26,095 nucleotides of DNA from Tolypothrix carrinoi HA7290-LM1 (GTDB taxonomy: Bacteria; Cyanobacteriota; Cyanobacteriia; Cyanobacteriales; Nostocaceae). Under the pieces are notes generated by a model. It saw nothing but the letters and a program-made list of their open reading frames with translations, searched no databases and was not told where the DNA came from. Below, one piece after another: positions 2,523 to 19,938 of this stretch. The DNA is taken from contig JAHHIK010000117.1 of the NCBI GenBank assembly GCA_019358935.1, forward strand, positions 1 through 26,095. The letters are read 5' to 3'. The stretch's first letter is position 1. Every line of letters begins with the position of its first letter. A program made the position numbers and the translations under genes.

Positions 2523-2948
2523 TCATGAAGCAAACCAGTTTTCAACTTTTAGAGATTGAAACTCAGCATAGTCTACCACATTGTTTGTCACTAAAACTAA
2601 GTTATTAACAACAGCAATTGCCGCAATTTGTCCATCAACAAAGGTTGGTGTTTTCCCAAGCTTAACTAACCTTGTCCGCTCAGAGGCGTGCCATTTTGCA
2701 GCTTCTTTATCATAGGGTAATAATGGCAGCTTTGCTTCTACCTCTTCTTTAAGGTAAGCTTCGATTGCCCGACGTTTTTGAGAGTTAGGCAAGCGATAAC
2801 AGCCGTAGAGCATTTCATGAAGTACAACAGTTGCAGTGGCTAATGAGTCATCATATCTCAGTAGTGATTCCATAACGCCAGGGTTGGGAACTGGGCGTAG
2901 CGGTTCTGATAAGATATTGGTATCTAATAAAAATTGGGAAGCAGTCAA
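2523..2948 (-). CDS. vapC: VapC-family PIN-domain toxin
   Basis: FLLDTNILSE, DGQIAAIA and LVLVTNN..D PIN motifs. The TTG start overlaps the antitoxin TGA stop (TTGA). Confidence 0.92.
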   Translation of the reverse strand: MTASQFLLDTNILSEPLRPVPNPGVMESLLRYDDSLATATVVLHEMLYGCYRLPNSQKRRAIEAYLKEEVEAKLPLLPYDKEAAKWHASERTRLVKLGKTPTFVDGQIAAIAVVNNLVLVTNNVVDYAEFQSLKVENWFAS

Positions 2949-3226
2949 AAGTTAACCTCCCGACCAGATGTGCGATCGCGAACATTATCGAAAATTTCAT
3001 CTGGGTTAATATTTAATCTGGATATTTGGTACTTTTGCCGAAAGGTAGCAAGTTCTGCACCAAATTTGCTGTTTTCTCTTATCAAACGTTGATACTCAGA
3101 TAAGGATAATACAACTGCTACCGATTGACCTCGCCGTGTAATTTCAACAGGTTTACCATTTTCGGCTTGATGAACAATTTGAGCAAAGCGATCGCGGGCT
3201 TGAGCGATTGAGTATTGATCTGGCAT
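2945..3226 (-). CDS. Phd/YefM-family antitoxin
   Basis: YSIAQARDRFAQIVHQAENGKPVEITRRGQSVAVVLSLSEY is a Phd/YefM signature; lies directly upstream of the PIN toxin. Confidence 0.92.
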   Translation of the reverse strand: MPDQYSIAQARDRFAQIVHQAENGKPVEITRRGQSVAVVLSLSEYQRLIRENSKFGAELATFRQKYQISRLNINPDEIFDNVRDRTSGREVNF

Positions 3227-3268: not shown

Positions 3269-3368
3269 TTATCGCAATGATATTGTTTTTGCAGAGGCGA
3301 TCGCATCCCACTGACATCTCAGTAAAATCGCTATAATACAAAACAAAAGCGACACAAGGTTGCGGCAG

Positions 3369-6300
3369 ATGCTCAGGCGGAAAAAATTCAAGAAGTTCAA
3401 GCATCAATCAGTGAAACCTTCAACCCATAAAGGGTTTAGCAAAGAAGTAGCACCAGTTAGATTAGAGAAACGAGACGCACAAACATGGGCTGAGTCCGGA
3501 TGTAAACAATGTCAAGCAGCCAACTACAAAGTTGCTCTTGCTTCCTGCAAACGTGCTATTGAAATAGATGCTAACAACTATCTAGCTTGGATCAACCAAG
3601 CTTGTGTACTTAATAAGTTAGAACGATATGAAGAAGCGATCGCATCATACGACAAAGCGATAGAAATTAAACCTGACTTTGACTTTGCTTGGTGCAATCG
3701 GGGTATGGTGCTGTTTAACTTAGGGCGATTTTATGAAGCGATCGCATCTTGGGACAAAGCCATAGAAATTAAACCTGACTGCGACTTAGCTTGGTATAAC
3801 CGGGGTATGGCATTGGAAAAGTTAGGACAATTTGAAGAAGCGATCGCATCCGACGATAAAGCGATACAAATTAAACCTGACTACGACTCAGCTTGGAACA
3901 ACCGGGGTGTGGCATTGGAAAAGTTAGGGCAATTTGAAGAAGCGATCGCATCCTACGACAAAGCGATACAAATTAAACCTAATTATTACGATGCTTGGTA
4001 TAACCGGGGTGTTGCGCTGGGTAATTTAGGGCAATTTGAAGAAGCGATCGCATCCTACGACAAAGCGATAGAAATTAAACCTAATTATTACGATGCTTGG
4101 AACAATCGGGGTGTGGCGTTGGAAAGGTTAGGGCGATTTGAAAAGGCGATCGCATCCTACGACAAAGCTATAGAAATCAAATCCCACTTATACTTCGCTT
4201 GGTTAAACCGGGGTGTGGTATTGGGTAACTTAGCACAATATGAAGAGGCAATCGCATCATATGACAAAGCCATAGAAATTAAACCTGACTGCGACTTAGC
4301 TTGGTATAACCGAGGTGTGGCATTGGAAAAGTTAGGACAATTTGAAGAAGCGATCGCATCCTACGACAAAGCTATAGAAATTAAACCTGACTTTGACTTG
4401 GCTTGGTTAAACCGGGGTGTGGCATTGGAAAGGTTAGGGCGATTTGAAGAGGCGATCGCATCCGAAGACAAAGCTATAGAAATTAAACCTGACTTTGACT
4501 TGGCTTGGTTAAACCGGGGTGTGGCATTGGAAAGGTTAGGGCGATTTGAAGAGGCGATCGCATCCGAAGACAAAGCTATAGAAATTAAACCTGACTTTGA
4601 CTTGGCTTGGTTAAACCGGGGTGTGGCATTGGAAAAGTTAGGACAATTTGAAGAAGCGATCGCATCCTACGACAAAGCGATAAAAATTAAACCTAATTAT
4701 TACGATGCTTGGAACAATCGGGGTGTGGCGTTGGAAAGGTTAGGGCGATTTGAAGAGGCGATCGCATCCGAAGACAAAGCGATACAAATCAAACCTGACT
4801 TCGACTCAGCTTGGCACAACCGGGGTATTGCGTTAGGTAACTTAGGGCGATTTGAAGAGGCGATCGCATCTTGGGACAAAGCTATAGAAATCAAACCTAA
4901 TCATTACGATACTTGGCACAACCGGGGTATTGCGTTAGGTAACTTAGGGCGATTTGAAGAGGCGATCGTATCCGAAGACAAAGCCATAGAAATCAAACCT
5001 GACTTCGACTCAGCTTGGCACAACCGGGGTATTGCGTTAGGTAACTTAGGGCGATTTGAAGAGGCGATCGCATCTTGGGACAAAGCTATAGAAATCAAAC
5101 CTAATCATTACGATACTTGGAACAACCGGGGTGTGGCGTTGGAAAGGTTAGGACGATTTGAAGAGGCGATCGCATCCGAAGACAAAGCCATAGAAATCAA
5201 ACCTGACTTTGACTTAGCTTGGTGTAATCGGGGTAATGCGCTGTTAAATTTAGGATGCTATGAAGAAGCGATCGCATCCTTCGACAAAGCCATAGAAATT
5301 AAACCTGACTTTGACATAGCTTGGTTAAACTGGGGTTTTGCCTTGGGGAATTTAGGACGATTTGAAGAAGCGATCGCATCCTTCGACAAAGCTATAGCAA
5401 TCAAACCTGACTTTGACTTGGCTTGGAATGGGCGGGGTGCTGTGCTATGCGATCACTTGCAACGCTATGAAGATGCGATCGCATCCTTTGACAAAGCCAT
5501 AGAAATTAAACCTGACTTTGACTTGGCTTGGTTAAACCGGGGCATTGCGGCAGAAAAATCAGTTACTTATAATCCGCCGAGTTTGTTAATTGGCATAGTA
5601 CAGAGAAATCTAACCCTCAACCAGCGCGGCTATGAGGGAAAATTGGCAAGCTATGAGGAAGGTTTGAAGTATTGCCAGCAAGACACGCACCCAGAAGGTT
5701 GGGGAAAATTACATCAGGCAATAGGTAATGCTCACTACTTCCGAGGGCGAGGAAATTCTTACCCCCGCACCTATTGGTACAAAGCTGTTATAAATTACAA
5801 TCAGGCTCTGAAAACTCTCACAGAAGCAGATTTTCCTGAGTTGCATCTGGAGGTTTTGCGAGAGTTAATTGGCGTTCAATTGGATTTGCAGGAAACCGCC
5901 AAAGCTGAAGAACTCCAGCGACGCGGTACAGATTTTTTACGCCGCTTGCTGAGTGAAGCAAATCGCTCTGATAAAAGTAAAAAACAACTAGCTTTGAAGT
6001 TTGCAGGCTTTCAGCAGTTGACTGTTGATTTAGCGGTGCAGTCTGGGAATCTGGTACAAGCAGTTGAATTAGCAGAACAGGGTAAAAATGCCTGTTTAAG
6101 TTGGCTTTTGTCTGCGTGGAGTGATGATATTTCCTCCCCCAGCTACTTAGAAATGCAACGGTTGCTCAATCCTACAACTGCTGTTGTTTACTGGCATATT
6201 AGCCCTTACGCCCTACACACTTTCATCCTCAAACACAACGCGCTATCACCCATCGTCTTGGGAGAAACCCGGTTTCTTGAAGAAGTCGGGCTTCTCAGCC

Positions 6301-7526
6301 AAACGCAACGCTTGCGTGAGTTTGAAGACTGGGTGAAAAAGTGGAATGAGCAATACGCCGATTATCGCAAAGGCAAAGATAAGCAAACATCGAACCTAAC
6401 CCCCCAGCCCCCTTCCCTGCAAGGGAAGGGGGAGAAATCAAAGCCTCTCTCCTTGCAGGAGAGAGGTTTGGAGAGAGGTTCCAACTGGCGCGACAACTTG
6501 CCCGAAATGCTTCGCCAATTGGGTAATATTCTCGATATACCTGCGATTGTAAACGCAATTGACCTAACCCCCCAGCCCCCTTCCCTGCGAGGGAAGGGGG
6601 AGCAAGATTCCCCTCCCCTGGCAGGAGAGGGGTTAGGGGAGAGGTCAATCCAAAATCTCATCCTAGTTCCTCACCGCGACTTACACCGCTTTCCTCTCCA
6701 TGCGCTGTTTGGCGATCGCTTCACCATCACCTATCTACCCAGCGCTCAAATTGGCTTAATTCCCTCAACCCTCTTTGAAAACAAAGGTTATGAGCGGGAC
6801 AATTTATTAAGCATCGAACATCCCAACAGCAAAGGTTATCCCTCGTTGGAATTTGCCCAAATTGAATCGGAAGCGATAAACCGGATGTTCTTCAAACCCA
6901 CTCGCTTTTCCTCTAAACAAGCTACAAAAGAAGCACTAATAACTGCTTTGCCGGAAAAACACAGTATTTTTCACTTTACAGGACATGGCGAATACAATTT
7001 TCACAATCCGGCTTTATCTCACTTGGCGTTAGCGGGTGAAGATAAACTGACTCTTATCGATATTTGCAACTTTGATTTGAGAAGTTACAGACTCGTTAGT
7101 CTTGCTGCTTGCGAAAGCGCGATCGCAGGTAATCATACCATCACTACCGAATATGTCGGGCTTGTCAGTGGCTTTATGAGTTGCGGTGTGGCGCATGTCG
7201 TCAGTACTCTGTGGACTGTGGAATCAGCCGCTAGCGCTTTGGTGATGATTCAATTTTACCACCTGCTGCAACAAGAAAAATCAGAGATTGTAGCTTTGGC
7301 TAAAGCTACCCAATGGTTGCGAAATGTCACTAACGCCAAACTTGCAGAATGGTATGCAGCCCAAATTGCCCGACTTCACGAAGATGAAGGTATAGTTTAC
7401 CGTTTTTTGTCACGCCATTTAAACTATATTAACAATACAACCGAACCAAATAATAAACCTTATAATCATCCTTATTTCTGGGCAGCTTTTACAATTACTG
7501 GGAATTTTGAATCATGCAACCTTTAG
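3369..7526 (+). CDS. TPR-repeat + CHAT (caspase HetF associated with TPRs) protease
   Basis: About 19-20 34-aa TPR repeats (AWxNRGxALxxLGxFEEAIASxDKAIEIKP). C-terminal CHAT domain with IFHFTGHG (His), VSLAACES (Cys), STLWTV and HPYFWAAF. Start uncertain (TTG 3360 or ATG 3369). Confidence 0.93.
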   Translation: MLRRKKFKKFKHQSVKPSTHKGFSKEVAPVRLEKRDAQTWAESGCKQCQAANYKVALASCKRAIEIDANNYLAWINQACVLNKLERYEEAIASYDKAIEIKPDFDFAWCNRGMVLFNLGRFYEAIASWDKAIEIKPDCDLAWYNRGMALEKLGQFEEAIASDDKAIQIKPDYDSAWNNRGVALEKLGQFEEAIASYDKAIQIKPNYYDAWYNRGVALGNLGQFEEAIASYDKAIEIKPNYYDAWNNRGVALERLGRFEKAIASYDKAIEIKSHLYFAWLNRGVVLGNLAQYEEAIASYDKAIEIKPDCDLAWYNRGVALEKLGQFEEAIASYDKAIEIKPDFDLAWLNRGVALERLGRFEEAIASEDKAIEIKPDFDLAWLNRGVALERLGRFEEAIASEDKAIEIKPDFDLAWLNRGVALEKLGQFEEAIASYDKAIKIKPNYYDAWNNRGVALERLGRFEEAIASEDKAIQIKPDFDSAWHNRGIALGNLGRFEEAIASWDKAIEIKPNHYDTWHNRGIALGNLGRFEEAIVSEDKAIEIKPDFDSAWHNRGIALGNLGRFEEAIASWDKAIEIKPNHYDTWNNRGVALERLGRFEEAIASEDKAIEIKPDFDLAWCNRGNALLNLGCYEEAIASFDKAIEIKPDFDIAWLNWGFALGNLGRFEEAIASFDKAIAIKPDFDLAWNGRGAVLCDHLQRYEDAIASFDKAIEIKPDFDLAWLNRGIAAEKSVTYNPPSLLIGIVQRNLTLNQRGYEGKLASYEEGLKYCQQDTHPEGWGKLHQAIGNAHYFRGRGNSYPRTYWYKAVINYNQALKTLTEADFPELHLEVLRELIGVQLDLQETAKAEELQRRGTDFLRRLLSEANRSDKSKKQLALKFAGFQQLTVDLAVQSGNLVQAVELAEQGKNACLSWLLSAWSDDISSPSYLEMQRLLNPTTAVVYWHISPYALHTFILKHNALSPIVLGETRFLEEVGLLSQTQRLREFEDWVKKWNEQYADYRKGKDKQTSNLTPQPPSLQGKGEKSKPLSLQERGLERGSNWRDNLPEMLRQLGNILDIPAIVNAIDLTPQPPSLRGKGEQDSPPLAGEGLGERSIQNLILVPHRDLHRFPLHALFGDRFTITYLPSAQIGLIPSTLFENKGYERDNLLSIEHPNSKGYPSLEFAQIESEAINRMFFKPTRFSSKQATKEALITALPEKHSIFHFTGHGEYNFHNPALSHLALAGEDKLTLIDICNFDLRSYRLVSLAACESAIAGNHTITTEYVGLVSGFMSCGVAHVVSTLWTVESAASALVMIQFYHLLQQEKSEIVALAKATQWLRNVTNAKLAEWYAAQIARLHEDEGIVYRFLSRHLNYINNTTEPNNKPYNHPYFWAAFTITGNFESCNL
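3570..5545 (+). repeat. 102-bp tandem coding repeat (TPR array)
   Basis: GCGATCGC or a one-mismatch variant recurs every 102 bp from 3636 to 5370, then at 5475. Units 4365-4466 and 4467-4568 are identical. Confidence 0.95.
6262..6296. repeat. In-frame imperfect palindrome GAGAAACCCGGTTTCTT-G-AAGAAGTCGGGCTTCTC (small dispersed repeat)
   Basis: 17-nt arms, 14/17 Watson-Crick pairs; encodes ETRFLEEVGLL within the CHAT region. Confidence 0.6.
6392..6481. repeat. In-frame double-hairpin dispersed repeat, copy 1
   Basis: Terminal inverted GAACCT/AGGTTC. Hairpins CCCCCTTCCCT-GCA-AGGGAAGGGGG (6408-6432) and CCTCTCTCCT-TGC-AGGAGAGAGG (6444-6466). Encodes NLTPQPPSLQGKGEKSKPLSLQERGLERG. Confidence 0.85.
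6558..6649. repeat. In-frame double-hairpin dispersed repeat, copy 2
   Basis: Terminal inverted ATTGACCT/AGGTCAAT. Shares ACCTAACCCCCCAGCCCCCTTCCCTGC.AGGGAAGGGGGAG with copy 1. Encodes DLTPQPPSLRGKGEQDSPPLAGEGLGERS. Confidence 0.85.
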
Positions 7527-7936
7527 AAGCCTCGGAACTCAAAGCTTTTCTTTTTGCACTTTACCAGCTTGACGCACCTTTGCCAGATGATGTGCAAGCG
7601 CAAATAAATAATATCAACATTCCGGCGGATATTGACAAACTGTATAATATTGCGATGAGTTATCCGCCGCTTGCAACTTACTACGAACAAATTCACGAAT
7701 CTTTAAACGCAAATAGTAAAATCCGGAGTCGAGGACCATTACCAGCTAAAATTAATCATGCTGCGGAACAGCAAAGCACAGAAATCAACAATATTATTGT
7801 TGCCATTGACGAACAACTCGAAGAAGAAAAGTTAACTGAAATCTCTCAACCCATTTTCAAGGCTGCTGACTCTGTAAATAAAGCTAAAGATGTTTGGGCA
7901 ATAATTATTCGTTCTTTACAAATGCCCATGCCATGA
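7514..7936 (+). CDS. Hypothetical 140-aa helical protein, coupled to the TPR-CHAT gene
   Basis: The ATG overlaps the CHAT gene end by 13 nt and the TGA overlaps the next ATG (ATGA 7933-7936). Central basic linker KIRSRGPLP. Confidence 0.8.
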   Translation: MQPLEASELKAFLFALYQLDAPLPDDVQAQINNINIPADIDKLYNIAMSYPPLATYYEQIHESLNANSKIRSRGPLPAKINHAAEQQSTEINNIIVAIDEQLEEEKLTEISQPIFKAADSVNKAKDVWAIIIRSLQMPMP

Positions 7937-9312
7937 ATCAACAGCATAATCTCATTTATCCAACTGTTGATTTATTTGTCTACGATCTACAACAAGGCTT
8001 AGGACAAACTGAGGAGCAAATTAACCAAAATCGTCATCAGTTTTGGCGAAAAATCAAACCCGAATTAAATAAAGATTACCAACAACTTAATTCTCAAGAA
8101 CAGGATTTACTCCAAAAACTCGCTTCTCTGGAAAAAGCTGAAGCCGATTATGTCGAGTTACTCGTACCAGAAAAACTTGAAAAATTTGACTCAGACTTAG
8201 AAGGCTACTACCGCGCACTGCAACTGAGTGATACCTATGCCTTACAAATCGATTGCTCTGTTATCAATGATAATAACAGCAAACCAATCAGCCGTTTCCA
8301 GGATATTAAAAAAAATATAGAATCGCGCATACATCAGCAAGGAAAACTCGGTAAAACCTGGTTTGTTTGGGGACAGTTGTCAAAAATTTATAACGATGAA
8401 GAAATTCACGCGATCGCCCAACAATGCTATAAGCAAATAAACCCCAATTCTCAAACTCAAATCAACTTGAAAAACCAGGGTAATTTTTTAGGTGCAACTG
8501 CATTTGAAGTGTGGGAACAACCCAATGATTGGGTTGATGAAAAAAGCTTTCAAGATAGCTTTCATATATTAATATGTTTGTTTGCACCAGAGCGATCGCT
8601 TGACGACATCAGCACAAGCATCGCCAATGTATATTTCGATTTAAGCCGTCTGTTTTGCTACCGCCATAAAATTATTTGGGCTTACCACCAAAGCCGTAAA
8701 TTGAAAAGCAAACTCAAAAAAGATTTTCATGAGGTGCAACAAATAGTAAAAAAAATCACTGATTTAGGACAACAAATAAACGCAGGTAAACTAAATCTTC
8801 AAGAATTACAAAAAACCTTAACAGACACATTGACAATTTTATCGCACTATGCAATAGATTTAAATTACCTTGATGACCAAGGACGCACAATTAAAGTAAA
8901 TCTGAATAATTACAAAAAGCGGCTAGAGAAGATTTCAAAAGAAAATAGCAACAATCAGCGACAATTTATGCAAGAATTTAGCGAATTTAGTGCTGAGAAA
9001 TATCTCCAACAAATAGAGACAGATTATATTAACCTTAGCCCAGGTTTGACCCTGCTGCAAAATTTAATTAGTACAATTCAAGGTACAATTGACATATACC
9101 AAGCAAAAAGCGATCGCCACCTAGAAGAATTCATCGGCATCGCAGGTGTGGGACTAGCAACCAGCCAAATAGGATCTGCCGTCATCCTAGCCGAAATACC
9201 CAAAGATAAAAATCCTCTAGCTTACCAAACCCAAATCTTTACCTTGAGTTTAGGTATAGGCTTGATTTTTGCCGTGGTAACGTATATATTGTTTCGCATC
9301 TTTCGTCGCTAA
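7933..9312 (+). CDS. Hypothetical 459-aa protein with long helical/coiled-coil stalk and two C-terminal TM helices
   Basis: ATGA overlap start. Hydrophobic segments FIGIAGVGLATSQIGSAVILA and IFTLSLGIGLIFAVVTYILF with basic tail RIFRR, preceded by a Q/K/L-rich helical region. Confidence 0.85.
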   Translation: MNQQHNLIYPTVDLFVYDLQQGLGQTEEQINQNRHQFWRKIKPELNKDYQQLNSQEQDLLQKLASLEKAEADYVELLVPEKLEKFDSDLEGYYRALQLSDTYALQIDCSVINDNNSKPISRFQDIKKNIESRIHQQGKLGKTWFVWGQLSKIYNDEEIHAIAQQCYKQINPNSQTQINLKNQGNFLGATAFEVWEQPNDWVDEKSFQDSFHILICLFAPERSLDDISTSIANVYFDLSRLFCYRHKIIWAYHQSRKLKSKLKKDFHEVQQIVKKITDLGQQINAGKLNLQELQKTLTDTLTILSHYAIDLNYLDDQGRTIKVNLNNYKKRLEKISKENSNNQRQFMQEFSEFSAEKYLQQIETDYINLSPGLTLLQNLISTIQGTIDIYQAKSDRHLEEFIGIAGVGLATSQIGSAVILAEIPKDKNPLAYQTQIFTLSLGIGLIFAVVTYILFRIFRR

Positions 9313-9364: not shown

Positions 9365-10264
9365 ATGTCTTCTCAACGCACAATTCAAAGTATATATACA
9401 GATGGCGCTTGCACCGGCAACCCAGGTCCAGGAGGTTGGGGTGTAGTCGTCTATTTTACCGATGGCTCAATTTATGAAATGGGCGATCGCTCTTTGCATA
9501 CCACCAATAATAAAATGGAAATGCAAGCAGCGATCGCAGCTCTTAAATTCTTAGAAGAATCTGGACAAAAAGAACCCGTTCCCCTTTATACCGACAGCGA
9601 ATATTTAATCAACTGCGTTACCAAGTGGGTGAAAGGCTGGAAAAAGAAAGGCTGGAAAAAAGCAGATGGAAACCCCGTCCAAAATCAAGACCTTTTGGAA
9701 CAATTGGATCAACTCAATAGTCGCAGAGTCAAGTGGGAACATGTCCGGGGTCATTCTGGTAATATAGGTAACGAACGTTGCGATGTAATTGCTCGTGCCT
9801 ACGCCAGTGGTAAAACCCCATCCCTCAAACAACTGGCTTACACTCACTCTCACCAATCCTTAACGCAAATAAGCGAGATAAATGTAGCAAAAGTATCTGA
9901 TTGTGATACAAACTCGACAATAATTAACAAAAGAAAACAAGAAATCAGTATTGCAACAGATACAACAATTATGGAGCCATCTACATCGACAACAATCGAA
10001 GAAAAACCACCAGAGATGAGGGTGGCGCATCTCCGCAACTTGGTTGAAACTCTGCACATCGCTGACGAAATAGCCACAAAAGGCTACTTAATCACCAGTT
10101 CCGAACTAGCAGATTTAATGGATGTTCACGCCAGCGCTGTCACCAGTCGAGGAGATCAATGGCGCTGGCGCAACTGGATTGTCTCACGCGTAAGACGAGA
10201 AGGTAATCAAATTCTCTGGGAATTGGAAAGAGGCGATCGCGTGGAAAGTGAAAGTGAGGAGTGA
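9365..10264 (+). CDS. rnhA: Ribonuclease HI with cyanobacterial C-terminal extension
   Basis: IYTDGACTGNPGPGGWG, TTNNKMEMQAAI, YTDSEY, WKKKGWK and VRGHSGNIGNERCD. Extra C-terminal domain (LITSSELADL...WRWRNW). Confidence 0.95.
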   Translation: MSSQRTIQSIYTDGACTGNPGPGGWGVVVYFTDGSIYEMGDRSLHTTNNKMEMQAAIAALKFLEESGQKEPVPLYTDSEYLINCVTKWVKGWKKKGWKKADGNPVQNQDLLEQLDQLNSRRVKWEHVRGHSGNIGNERCDVIARAYASGKTPSLKQLAYTHSHQSLTQISEINVAKVSDCDTNSTIINKRKQEISIATDTTIMEPSTSTTIEEKPPEMRVAHLRNLVETLHIADEIATKGYLITSSELADLMDVHASAVTSRGDQWRWRNWIVSRVRREGNQILWELERGDRVESESEE

Positions 10265-17870: not shown

Positions 17871-18179
17871 ATTCTAAATGTAGCCTTTTTAGTCTAAACG
17901 CCAATTAATTATATTTACTTTTCAAATAACATATTTTCCGAAATTACCATTTCTGCATTTGTAGGTGTGTACAGATTGCACAAAAAATAATCAAAAAACT
18001 AGGAGGTATTTACATTAGCGTTATAGATGACCTGAAGAAGCAGTTTCATTCTACCTGTTTTTTTCCACAAGTGAAAGTTGGATTTTAGCAGATAATTACA
18101 ACCCGTCCGACCTTGCATTTTGGTATTTATGCAAGAGGGAATATTAACTGCGTTTACAACACTAAGGAGCAATAAAACA

Positions 18180-19938
18180 ATGGACAACGAAAAGCTGATT
18201 GAAGCGCTGCTAAACTGTCCTAATGGTGAAGAACTAGCTATTTTTAAAGCCAACCAAAACTTGATAGATGCTAGGTTAGTACAAACAATGCTAGATTATG
18301 CAACAAATCTGGCAACAAGAAACTACATAGACGCCTCCGAGCGCTTAATAAAGATTGTCGTCTTTAATCTGTTAGTTACCCTGAGAAATGCTAACTTTCG
18401 GGACTTGAAGAATGACTTTTTAGAGGCTAGCGCTCTGTTTTGTCTAGGTACTGATTACCAAGCCTTAGACCAATTAGCAGAAGCAAAAAAATGCTACCAG
18501 CAGAGTTTGAACATCACTAATAAGTTAGATATTGAGGTTGGAGGCGAACTCAAGGTAAGCAGTTTGCAGGGTCTGGGAAGTTATCACACAAGGAAGAGGG
18601 AATTAGCCGAGGCGGAAAAATATTACCAAGAGAGTTTGGATATTGCTGAGAAGATATTGGACATTGCTAATAACAAAAATGATGATGGGCTCCGGAACAT
18701 GGCTCTGCAGAAAAAGGCTAATGCTCTAGAACCCCTGGCAGGGATTTACTATAACCAAGGGAAATTAGATCAGGCATGGAGTTCCAACGAACAGAGCTTG
18801 ACGCTCAAGCAGCAACTTCAGGATCAGATTGGTAGAGGGAATTCTATTCGCTTTCGGGGAAGCATTTTTGTGGTCAAGTACTTTATTGATTTGGGTTATC
18901 AAACCCACTGGAGAAATTGCCTTTCGCCTCAAACCTTTATTGCAGGAATTTAATACATCTCTGGAAGAGCTGGTTGCGATCGCCCGTGAATCCATTGGTA
19001 CTACAAGAACGCGTTTTGTTGGCTCGGATGGGGACGATAATGATAACGAAATTATTCAAGGAAACAACAAACAATTACAACAACTTTATCAAATCCTGAT
19101 CGAACCTATTACTGAGTTTTTGCCAAAAGATGCAGATGAGCGGGTCATTTTTATCCCCCAAAACAGCTTATTTCTTGTTCCCTTCCCAGCCCTCCAAGAT
19201 GCTTCTGGTAAATATCTGATTTCGCAGCACACCATCCTCACCGCTCCTTCCATCCAAGTTCTAGAAATAACTCGCCAGCACCAGCAACGAGTCCAAAAGA
19301 TGGAGCTTCAGGATGTACTGGTGGTAGGCAATCCGACCATGCCGCCTTTTAAATCTCATCAGTTGATTCCTCTTCCAGGTGCAGAACAGGAAGCCAAACA
19401 AATCGCTCCCCTCTTGAATACCGAAGCATTTATAGGCTCGGAAGCCACTAAGGTTGCTATTGTCGAGCGGATGCCTACAGCACGGATTATTCATCTAGCA
19501 ACTCACGGGTTACTCGATGACGCTGATGAATTAAAGGTGCCAGGAGCGATCGCTTTAGCGCCGTTAGGAACAGATGATGGTTGGCTTACGGCTACAGAAA
19601 TCATGAATTTAAAGATGCTAAAAGCTGAGTTAGTTGTTCTGAGTGCTTGTAACACTGGACAAGGACGATTAACCAGGGATGGCGTGATCGGCTTATCTCG
19701 CTCTTTTATTTCTAGAGGCGTTCCGAGTGTGATTGCATCTTTGTGGTCAGTACCTGATGCTCCCACTGCCTCCTTCATGGTTGAGTTTTATCAAAATCTA
19801 CAACGAGGCTTAGACAAAGCCCAAGCCCTGCGGCAAGCGATGCTAACGATCAAGGAAAGATATCCCCACCCAATAGATTGGGCTGCGTTTACATTAATTG
19901 GCGAAGCATCGCAATCTATCTTTCAAAAAGCTGTATAA
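18180..19938 (+). pseudogene. Split TPR-CHAT gene (TPR part 18180-~18848, CHAT part ~18875-19938 in another frame)
   Basis: RBS AAGGAG then MDNEKLIEALLNCPNGEE; TPR repeats end abruptly at QIGRGNSI. The CHAT frame picks up at TLLIWVIKPTGEIAFR with intact IIHLATHG, VLSACNTG, ASLWSV and DWAAF. The CHAT frame has no early ATG start. Confidence 0.75.

Follow-up and report, generated by a model that had tools for sequence, protein, structure and literature searches.

Introduction

Death effectors that are unlocked by a protease include Pepco, EACC1, MBL and an α/β hydrolase (10.1101/2025.11.14.688446); the same paper names gasdermin and Csx29-Csx30, describes a defence caspase that cleaves at Arg-Gly, and lists CATASP among the modules left unstudied. 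The cyanobacterial CHAT protease HetF cleaves PatU3 between Arg117 and Ser118 (PMC9457339). A CorA-like effector of type III CRISPR systems is thought to depolarise membranes (PMC11229360), and the bacterial death-like domain bDLD1 has been described as a conflict-system adaptor (PMC8195603). The layout of CATRA, taken here from the supplement of PMC8195603 and from an actual CATRA locus carried by a Streptomyces plasmid, has three parts, namely a TPR-caspase, a small protein of 100–170 amino acids (aa) and a protein of ∼460–500 aa with a variable C-terminal effector. The same three parts are encoded in the stretch analysed here, contig JAHHIK010000117.1 of Tolypothrix carrinoi HA7290-LM1 (26,095 nucleotides (nt), referred to throughout as the window), where a TPR-CHAT protease gene is followed by genes for a small helical protein and for a CorA-like membrane protein. 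They constitute a single copy of a module that is widespread and mobile in cyanobacteria and has so far gone unannotated.

Results

Linkage of the three genes

The module is formed by three chained open reading frames on the plus strand, which overlap by 13 nt at 7514–7526 and by ATGA at 7933–7936, as had been noted in an earlier reading of this DNA from the letters alone (the sequence-only reading). The survey of relatives covered 161 loci, made up of the best 80 of 421 matches in GTDB genomes, 80 loci picked by hand from a phylum-profile match list to reach distant members, and one plasmid locus. Linkage was counted in the 140 of these that have at least 3 kb of upstream DNA, with the proviso that kin among the loci are not independent. 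The membrane gene is paired with a caspase-family gene and the small domain in 124 of the 140. These comprise 108 loci with a CHAT gene and a small gene (some CHAT genes being broken), eight in which the two are fused, seven with a C14 caspase gene and a small gene, and one rearranged locus that holds all parts (L122); of the rest, three have the small gene only, two the CHAT gene only and 11 neither. Homologues of the downstream genes are thus usually accompanied by a caspase-family gene, which is what the sequence-only reading, in proposing a coupled operon, would predict. Moreover, linkage persists down to ∼21–25% identity of the membrane protein, and the identities of the three genes to the window copy correlate (rho 0.66–0.80 over 61 loci). 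Ten further loci, added for their odd frame lengths or low scores, included two full triads, two fusions of CHAT to the transmembrane (TM) protein, one fusion of the TM and small proteins, one effector swap and one locus with CHAT and TM genes and no small gene.

Exchange of protease and output

In the seven C14 loci, a caspase-nSTAND1 protein stands in place of the TPR-CHAT protease, and its gene is mostly divergently transcribed. Pfam places nSTAND1 in all seven, WD40 in four, a CARF-like domain in L092 and trypsin in L128; the C14 domain itself is Pfam-listed for four and was seen as motifs in the other three. Judged from their domains, these sensors appear to have an NLR-like immune architecture. 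The small and TM genes stay together with either protease family, and no other observation points so clearly to proteolysis as the input. At eight loci the small domain is fused to the CHAT C-terminus.

The output end is exchanged as well. L122 and L198 have bDLD1 (E 6e-8 and 5e-8, respectively) in place of the TM pair; in L122 a bDLD1-caspase gene lies alongside, and in L198 trypsin is fused to the core-bDLD1 protein. Because the TM pair can be swapped for bDLD1 or for bDLD1 plus trypsin, the cytoplasmic core would be constant and the output variable; these comparisons point to the CorA-like cytoplasmic core, and not the TM pair, as the constant part. A search for family proteins of 1023–2920 aa returned none; genome searches nevertheless showed such fusions.

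Several other features of these loci were recorded. The N-terminus of the L122 TPR-CHAT protein (L122:4466-9601, minus strand) resembles, by eye, a Clp N-terminal repeat domain, in a locus with two bDLD1 domains. The caspase-nSTAND1 proteins of L092 (5141-8605) and L128 (4514-7474) are near-identical and differ at their ends (CARF-like Cas_APE2256 versus trypsin), and each gene adjoins a second caspase gene. A 363-aa gene with no Pfam match (L198:9219-10310) lies between the core-bDLD1-trypsin gene and the small gene. In Coleofasciculus (L035, L036, L037, L044 and L047), an intact TM gene without a small or protease gene sits behind phytoene desaturase/synthase-like genes and is followed by a TPR-only gene of ∼710 aa.

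The TPR-CHAT protease

The CHAT domain (PF12770) spans residues 1087–1382, counted from an in-frame TTG at 3360, with E 1.3e-39, and holds both catalytic motifs named by the sequence-only reading, HFTGHG and AACES. Their His1209 and Cys1251 are unchanged in 116/116 aligned relatives and form the His-Cys dyad expected of an active CHAT (clan CD) protease. The CHAT profile also matches solved Csx29-type CHAT proteins (E 3e-15); the dyad aligns with their catalytic residues, the His falling on the His of 7x8a. Residue 1169 is Glu in 97 of the 116 relatives, and no acid is found at this position in the Csx29 alignment. The TPR array consists of 18.9 copies of a 102-nt unit, and this region changes length fast, with total protein lengths of 937–1426 aa among full-length close relatives.

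The protease gene is interrupted in frame by two copies of a dispersed palindromic repeat, which had been overlooked in the sequence-only reading. The repeat gives 58 blastn matches in its own genome, similar repeat peptides occur in three of 129 related CHAT proteins, and a contig of a relative skips 6386–6486, which spans the first copy. It is presumably what is called a ‘small dispersed repeat’. In the same genome, a TPR-CHAT paralogue (G000:C12:34238-37927) lies behind a 241-aa gene whose N-terminus is similar. Sequencing runs contained small shares only; in one RNA library, contigs from relatives span portions of each of the three module genes, which does not show transcription.

The small protein and a candidate cleavage site

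The small protein is modelled as a bundle of helices with a linker of low confidence (predicted local distance difference test (pLDDT) 45–50 at residues 71–90), and a structure search with it matched no known fold (best Z 4.0). The start of this linker is strongly conserved: of 67 close members, 62 have Arg at column 71, 62 have Lys or Arg at column 73 and 62 have Gly at column 74, while column 72 is Ser, Asn or Thr. From the family data, the small protein emerges as a candidate substrate, and the cut would most likely fall after Arg71 or Arg73.

The linker also appears to vary with residue 1169 of the protease. Three close loci of one clade (L018, L019 and L022) have Gln71 and likewise Gln1169. 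In a clade of eight loci, and in L170, the acid at 1169 is lost and the linkers are hydrophobic and Gly-rich; L168 combines Gly at this position with an acidic linker, and five fused loci combine Ala with the linker M-G-A-G-G. A specificity pairing between Glu1169 and Arg71 is, from these alignments, a strong lead and not a result.

The CorA-like membrane protein

The AlphaFold2 model of the 459-aa protein (pLDDT 85.7) shows an α/β domain, a long helical stalk and two terminal helices, which is the layout of the CorA/ZntB superfamily, namely an α/β domain and stalk followed by two C-terminal TM helices. All of the ten top Foldseek matches are CorA proteins (best E 9.4e-4), in support of the suggestion that the protein is CorA-like. 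The best VIA match is CorA 8zah (Z 13.4, root mean square deviation (rmsd) 2.0 over 115 residues, stalk only), and VIA aligns E. coli CorA 5n77 to model residues 13–395 (Z 9.9, rmsd 4.3 over 181 residues). The architecture that had been read from the sequence stands as far as the stalk and a strong second TM helix (Kyte-Doolittle up to 2.35) are concerned; the first TM helix proved to be weak and poorly modelled. It is a conserved small-residue helix (G405, G407 and S411), and Arg244, Lys246 and Arg395 are invariant in the protein. The neighbours of the protein in the ESM Atlas are the MJ1566_N (0.91), DUF3422 (0.89) and CATRA (0.88) clusters.

The GMN selectivity motif that follows TM1 in CorA Mg transporters is absent from the TM region of 242 proteins, in which there were four GIN matches, none in the TM loop. 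The Tolypothrix genome carries a separate GMN-bearing CorA.

The TM region diverges apart from the core, with 39–44% identity against 75–79% in the core for L004-L013 and 77% against 46% for L015 (L001-L014, L015-L024). This separate variation suggests exchange of an output module.

A sequence search of the PDB gave coiled-coil and ATP synthase c-ring noise only, and the Pfam, NCBIfam and PADLOC libraries gave nothing specific for the small or the TM protein. Because both partner genes are missed by these current models, the family is invisible to annotation. PF26095, precomputed for three homologues, was not recovered in a local Pfam scan and was set aside.

Distribution and mobility

In the T. 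carrinoi genome (99.65% complete) the small gene and the TM gene are each present once, and 19 frames contain CHAT. The closest named relatives of the 459-aa protein come from heterocystous cyanobacteria (Tolypothrix sp., 92%; Spirirestis, 89%). A profile was positive in 51/301 cyanobacterial genomes, all in the same order as Tolypothrix, and in 21/37 genomes of its family; with a broader profile, 44 of 61 relatives were positive, with up to eight copies per genome. The family falls into 959 clusters at 50% identity (taxonomy not recorded). Relatives occur on 14 plasmid records, all of them cyanobacterial, and none was found in the viral contigs searched.

At 22 of the 80 closest loci the module lies just upstream of rnhA, at one chromosomal site. 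Seven rnhA sites from the same genus comprise three with an intact module, one with a broken TM gene, one that lacks the CHAT and small genes and keeps vapBC, and two with other genes. None of 13 rnhA sites from other genera, selected for having no adjacent match to the broader profile, carries the module. The operon is therefore not core: it is present in 21 of 37 genomes of its own family and is lost or broken within a genus.

Features of the window and neighbouring genes

The module lies next to vapBC, between a DUF442-like phosphatase gene and rnhA, as the sequence-only reading had it (Table 1). The vapBC pair was considered as a fourth component and rejected; it is retained where the module is deleted and is missing from three intact loci, and is thus incidental. 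The rnhA product has a C-terminal extension of ∼150 aa, without a Pfam match, which is conserved across the family. Elsewhere in the window, an unrelated second TPR plus CHAT region (18120–19938) is split over two overlapping frames (277 and 369 aa) and is possibly a frameshifted gene.

Table 1. Coordinates of the module, its parts and its neighbours in the window.
Feature	Position	Strand	Remark
TPR-CHAT protease gene	3369..7526	+	in-frame TTG at 3360; 1388 aa from there
Small helical protein, 140 aa	7514..7936	+	CATASP-like by position; candidate substrate
CorA-like protein, 459 aa	7933..9312	+	α/β domain ∼1–220, helical stalk 223–396, two C-terminal TM helices, basic tail, no GMN motif
TPR array	3615..5542	+	∼19 repeats; presumed sensor
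CHAT catalytic domain PF12770	6618..7505	+	
Glu1169	6864..6866	+	candidate S1 acid for a P1 arginine
His1209	6984..6986	+	catalytic
Cys1251	7110..7112	+	catalytic
R71-S-R-G74 motif	7724..7735	+	candidate cut site; start of low-confidence linker
Dispersed palindromic repeat	6394..6479	+	in-frame insertion; not part of the system
Dispersed palindromic repeat, second copy	6562..6645	+	in frame
vapBC toxin-antitoxin pair	2523..3226	-	neighbour outside the module
rnhA	9365..10264	+	outside the module; marks a recurrent but variable insertion site

Discussion

Taken together, we put the probability at about 55% that the module is a protease-gated cell-death or dormancy switch, acting probably against phage or other invaders and working like the predicted CATRA. 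A trigger bound by the TPR array would activate the CHAT protease, and the protease would cut the small protein in its flexible linker after Arg71 or Arg73, as conservation and covariation suggest. The cut would alter the action of the small protein on the CorA-like cytoplasmic domain, either by removing an inhibitor or by making an activating fragment. The CorA-like oligomer might then let ions leak non-selectively through its Gly-rich TM helices, depolarising the cell, and in the variants the same core would drive a death-like domain or a second protease. A role in defence is proposed on the strength of the patchiness, the decay, the plasmid copies, the NLR-like sensors and the death-like domains, and not of defence islands; the defence-island setting that had been looked for from the sequence-only reading did not emerge, as the flanking genes give no clear signal with PADLOC.

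A number of observations weigh against this proposal. The Foldseek TM-scores are low (0.15–0.23 over the query), the VIA match is mostly to the helical bundle, and the first TM helix is weakly hydrophobic (Kyte-Doolittle 1.68) and Gly/Ala/Ser-rich, with pLDDT below 50 at 395–421. Linkage is incomplete, since the TM gene stands alone in 11 of the 140 loci, the intact Coleofasciculus group among them, and three of the ten odd loci are orphans; the TPR-CHAT paralogue in the Tolypothrix genome, of the same clade and 48% identical, has neither a small nor a TM gene. The recurrent rnhA site suggests long vertical residence. Only nine of 62 downstream neighbours examined (from 97 listed) match PADLOC at 1e-15, about half of them housekeeping-like and with no control for comparison.

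The specificity pairing has its own difficulties. Glu1169 is generic in CHAT, being found in all 15 CHAT frames listed for the Tolypothrix genome, and its candidate S1 role is assigned by analogy with clan CD proteases, which place an acid for a P1 arginine at this site. A crude count of 113 protease/linker pairs gives 86 with acid and Arg, eight with acid and no Arg, nine with Arg and no acid, and ten with neither, and L115 keeps R-G without the acid. On the tree the covariation is not significant (median p 1), there being four to five independent pairs, too few to reach significance.

Other wirings would keep the conflict role. The protease could act on the CorA-like protein directly, with or without cutting the small protein too; alternatively, the core could be a sensor or scaffold upstream of the protease, with the TM pair serving only as membrane anchor. 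A pore is not obligatory, given that the core is kept when bDLD1 or bDLD1 plus trypsin replaces the TM helices, and the TM region is exchanged separately from the core (39–44% identity where the core has 75–79%). Two loci have CHAT and TM genes without a detectable small gene (L107 and L202) and two have CHAT-TM fusions (L196 and L197); these fusions, however, contain partial domains and so resemble deletions. The invariant Arg244, Lys246 and Arg395 of the TM protein might be read as targets for cleavage, but they lie in predicted helices, whereas the motif of the small protein lies in a disordered linker. Moreover, the small gene stays with the TM gene across the protease swap. On balance we regard these wirings as unlikely.

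A role outside conflict is less probable again. The module could serve filamentous cyanobacteria in development or stress signalling, as a proteolytic switch that is similar to HetF-PatU3, tunes an ion channel and is not directed against invaders. HetF is indeed a CHAT protease from cyanobacteria whose substrate is developmental (PMC9457339), and in the phylum sample the module is limited to its own order, recurs at the rnhA site and shows no defence-island signal. However, its loss and decay within one genus, its plasmid copies, the presence of up to eight divergent copies, and the nSTAND1 and death-like swaps are unlike a fixed developmental gene. It is very improbable that the last gene is an ordinary CorA-family metal transporter lying by chance behind one of many cyanobacterial TPR-CHAT genes, for although its fold is CorA-like, the genome has 19 CHAT frames and some TM genes stand alone, it lacks GMN, a separate GMN-bearing CorA is present in the genome, linkage holds at 124/140 loci across two protease families, and there are fusions.

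Returning to the protease-gated switch, a broader view can be put forward tentatively. The loci may represent a large cyanobacterial family of immune switches that act in three steps: a CorA-derived channel would be gated by a cleavable ‘fuse’ and TPR-CHAT or NLR-like caspase-nSTAND1 sensors would cut that fuse. Protease and fuse specificity would co-evolve, insulating the copies within one genome from each other, and the output driven by the core would be a membrane pore in some cases and a death-domain-linked protease in others. If true, the cleavable fuse would supply the missing mechanism for CATRA/CATASP, a new mode of gating for a CorA-type channel (proteolysis of a partner) and a candidate route to programmed cell death in multicellular cyanobacteria. 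Filamentous cyanobacteria are rich in caspase-like proteases, very few of which have known substrates. CATASP-type modules are still unstudied (10.1101/2025.11.14.688446), and the family offers a candidate substrate, a candidate cut site, a candidate specificity residue and natural specificity variants. With these in hand, the mechanism is testable by a few point mutants.

Comparison with described systems

The CorA-like protein shares with CorA/ZntB proteins and with the CRISPR CorA-like effector an α/β domain, a long stalk and two C-terminal TM helices. Unlike these, it lacks GMN, and its gating would depend on proteolysis instead of Mg or SAM-AMP; CRISPR genes were not noticed in any of the loci examined. 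The protease-unlocked effectors resemble the module in having a sensor-fused caspase-family protease beside a small latent partner, with interchangeable sensors, and the α/β hydrolase among them is cut after Arg-Gly. In contrast, they consist of two parts, and the protein that is cut is itself the toxin, whereas here the candidate substrate is a soluble bundle of helices, accompanied by a third protein with the shape of a channel. The module is not a type III-E Craspase, since the Csx29 score is 55 against a cut-off of 300 bits and there is no cas gene among the 21 window proteins scanned. Nor does it look like a gasdermin system: neither partner matches the Pfam, PADLOC or NCBIfam gasdermin models, and both structural models have other folds. 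HetF-PatU3 of Anabaena is similar in that a cyanobacterial CHAT protease makes an Arg-Ser cut; HetF, however, is a membrane protease that functions in cell division and the development of heterocysts (PMC9457339), whereas the protease described here has N-terminal TPRs and belongs to a patchy, mobile module.

The sequence-only reading had also suggested a link to CATRA, and here the layout agrees whereas the Pfam CATRA models do not match the family. CATRA-N (PF20269) was unmatched in 101 and 91 aligned members, in the Tolypothrix genome and in the 301 cyanobacterial genomes; the model does match the Streptomyces CATRA control. CATRA-C (PF20270) was unmatched in the 459-aa protein, as it was in the true CATRA control. 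CATASP (PF20271) was absent among the matches listed for 75 members and 16 distant members and from the Tolypothrix genome, and the control Streptomyces small protein scores only E 0.027 against this model. Alignment of the small protein to the control CATRA small protein with hhalign found nothing, and that of the large protein to seven real CATRA proteins was weak (probability 3–5%). In a profile test against CATRA run at two settings, z was 0.8 (semi-global) and 2.4–2.5 (global), with housekeeping CorA equally high and with G91, G140 and E192 in register. The ESM Atlas CATRA cluster that neighbours the large protein (score 0.88) holds 170 features. CATRA relatives recovered were six homologues and one plasmid record, with none in metagenomes, and CATRA-N was found on one of seven Streptomyces plasmids. 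One such plasmid, NZ_CP108443.1, also carries another CHAT gene followed by hypothetical genes of 124 and 302 aa with no Pfam match (L133:1520-5899), a possible further protease module.

The literature search found no description of this cyanobacterial module; it did not cover the original 2020 description of CATRA, which possibly lists cyanobacterial members. The passages of Kaur 2020 (PMC7159879) examined mention neither CorA nor CATRA. The supplements of PMC8195603 were searched for CATRA, CATASP, CorA and bDLD1, and among the 30 of 38 mentions of CATASP viewed there, CATASP occurs in actinobacterial GT4 fusions.

In organization the likeness to CATRA is closer. One conserved neighbourhood of TPR plus caspase, small and large genes is found at 124/140 loci, the C-terminal effector is variable (two TM helices, bDLD1, or bDLD1 plus trypsin), and STAND-type genes lie nearby, as they do in CATRA. 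In the Streptomyces CATRA locus the small and large genes are divergent from the CHAT gene, a TM region lies at the C-terminus of the large protein, and the small protein contains a T-K-G motif. The cyanobacterial module differs in its host, in having two TM helices as its usual output and in that its protease can be C14-nSTAND1. As a variant, the module resembles an actinobacterial system that was predicted but never tested, and it may work like CATRA as a distant branch of it.

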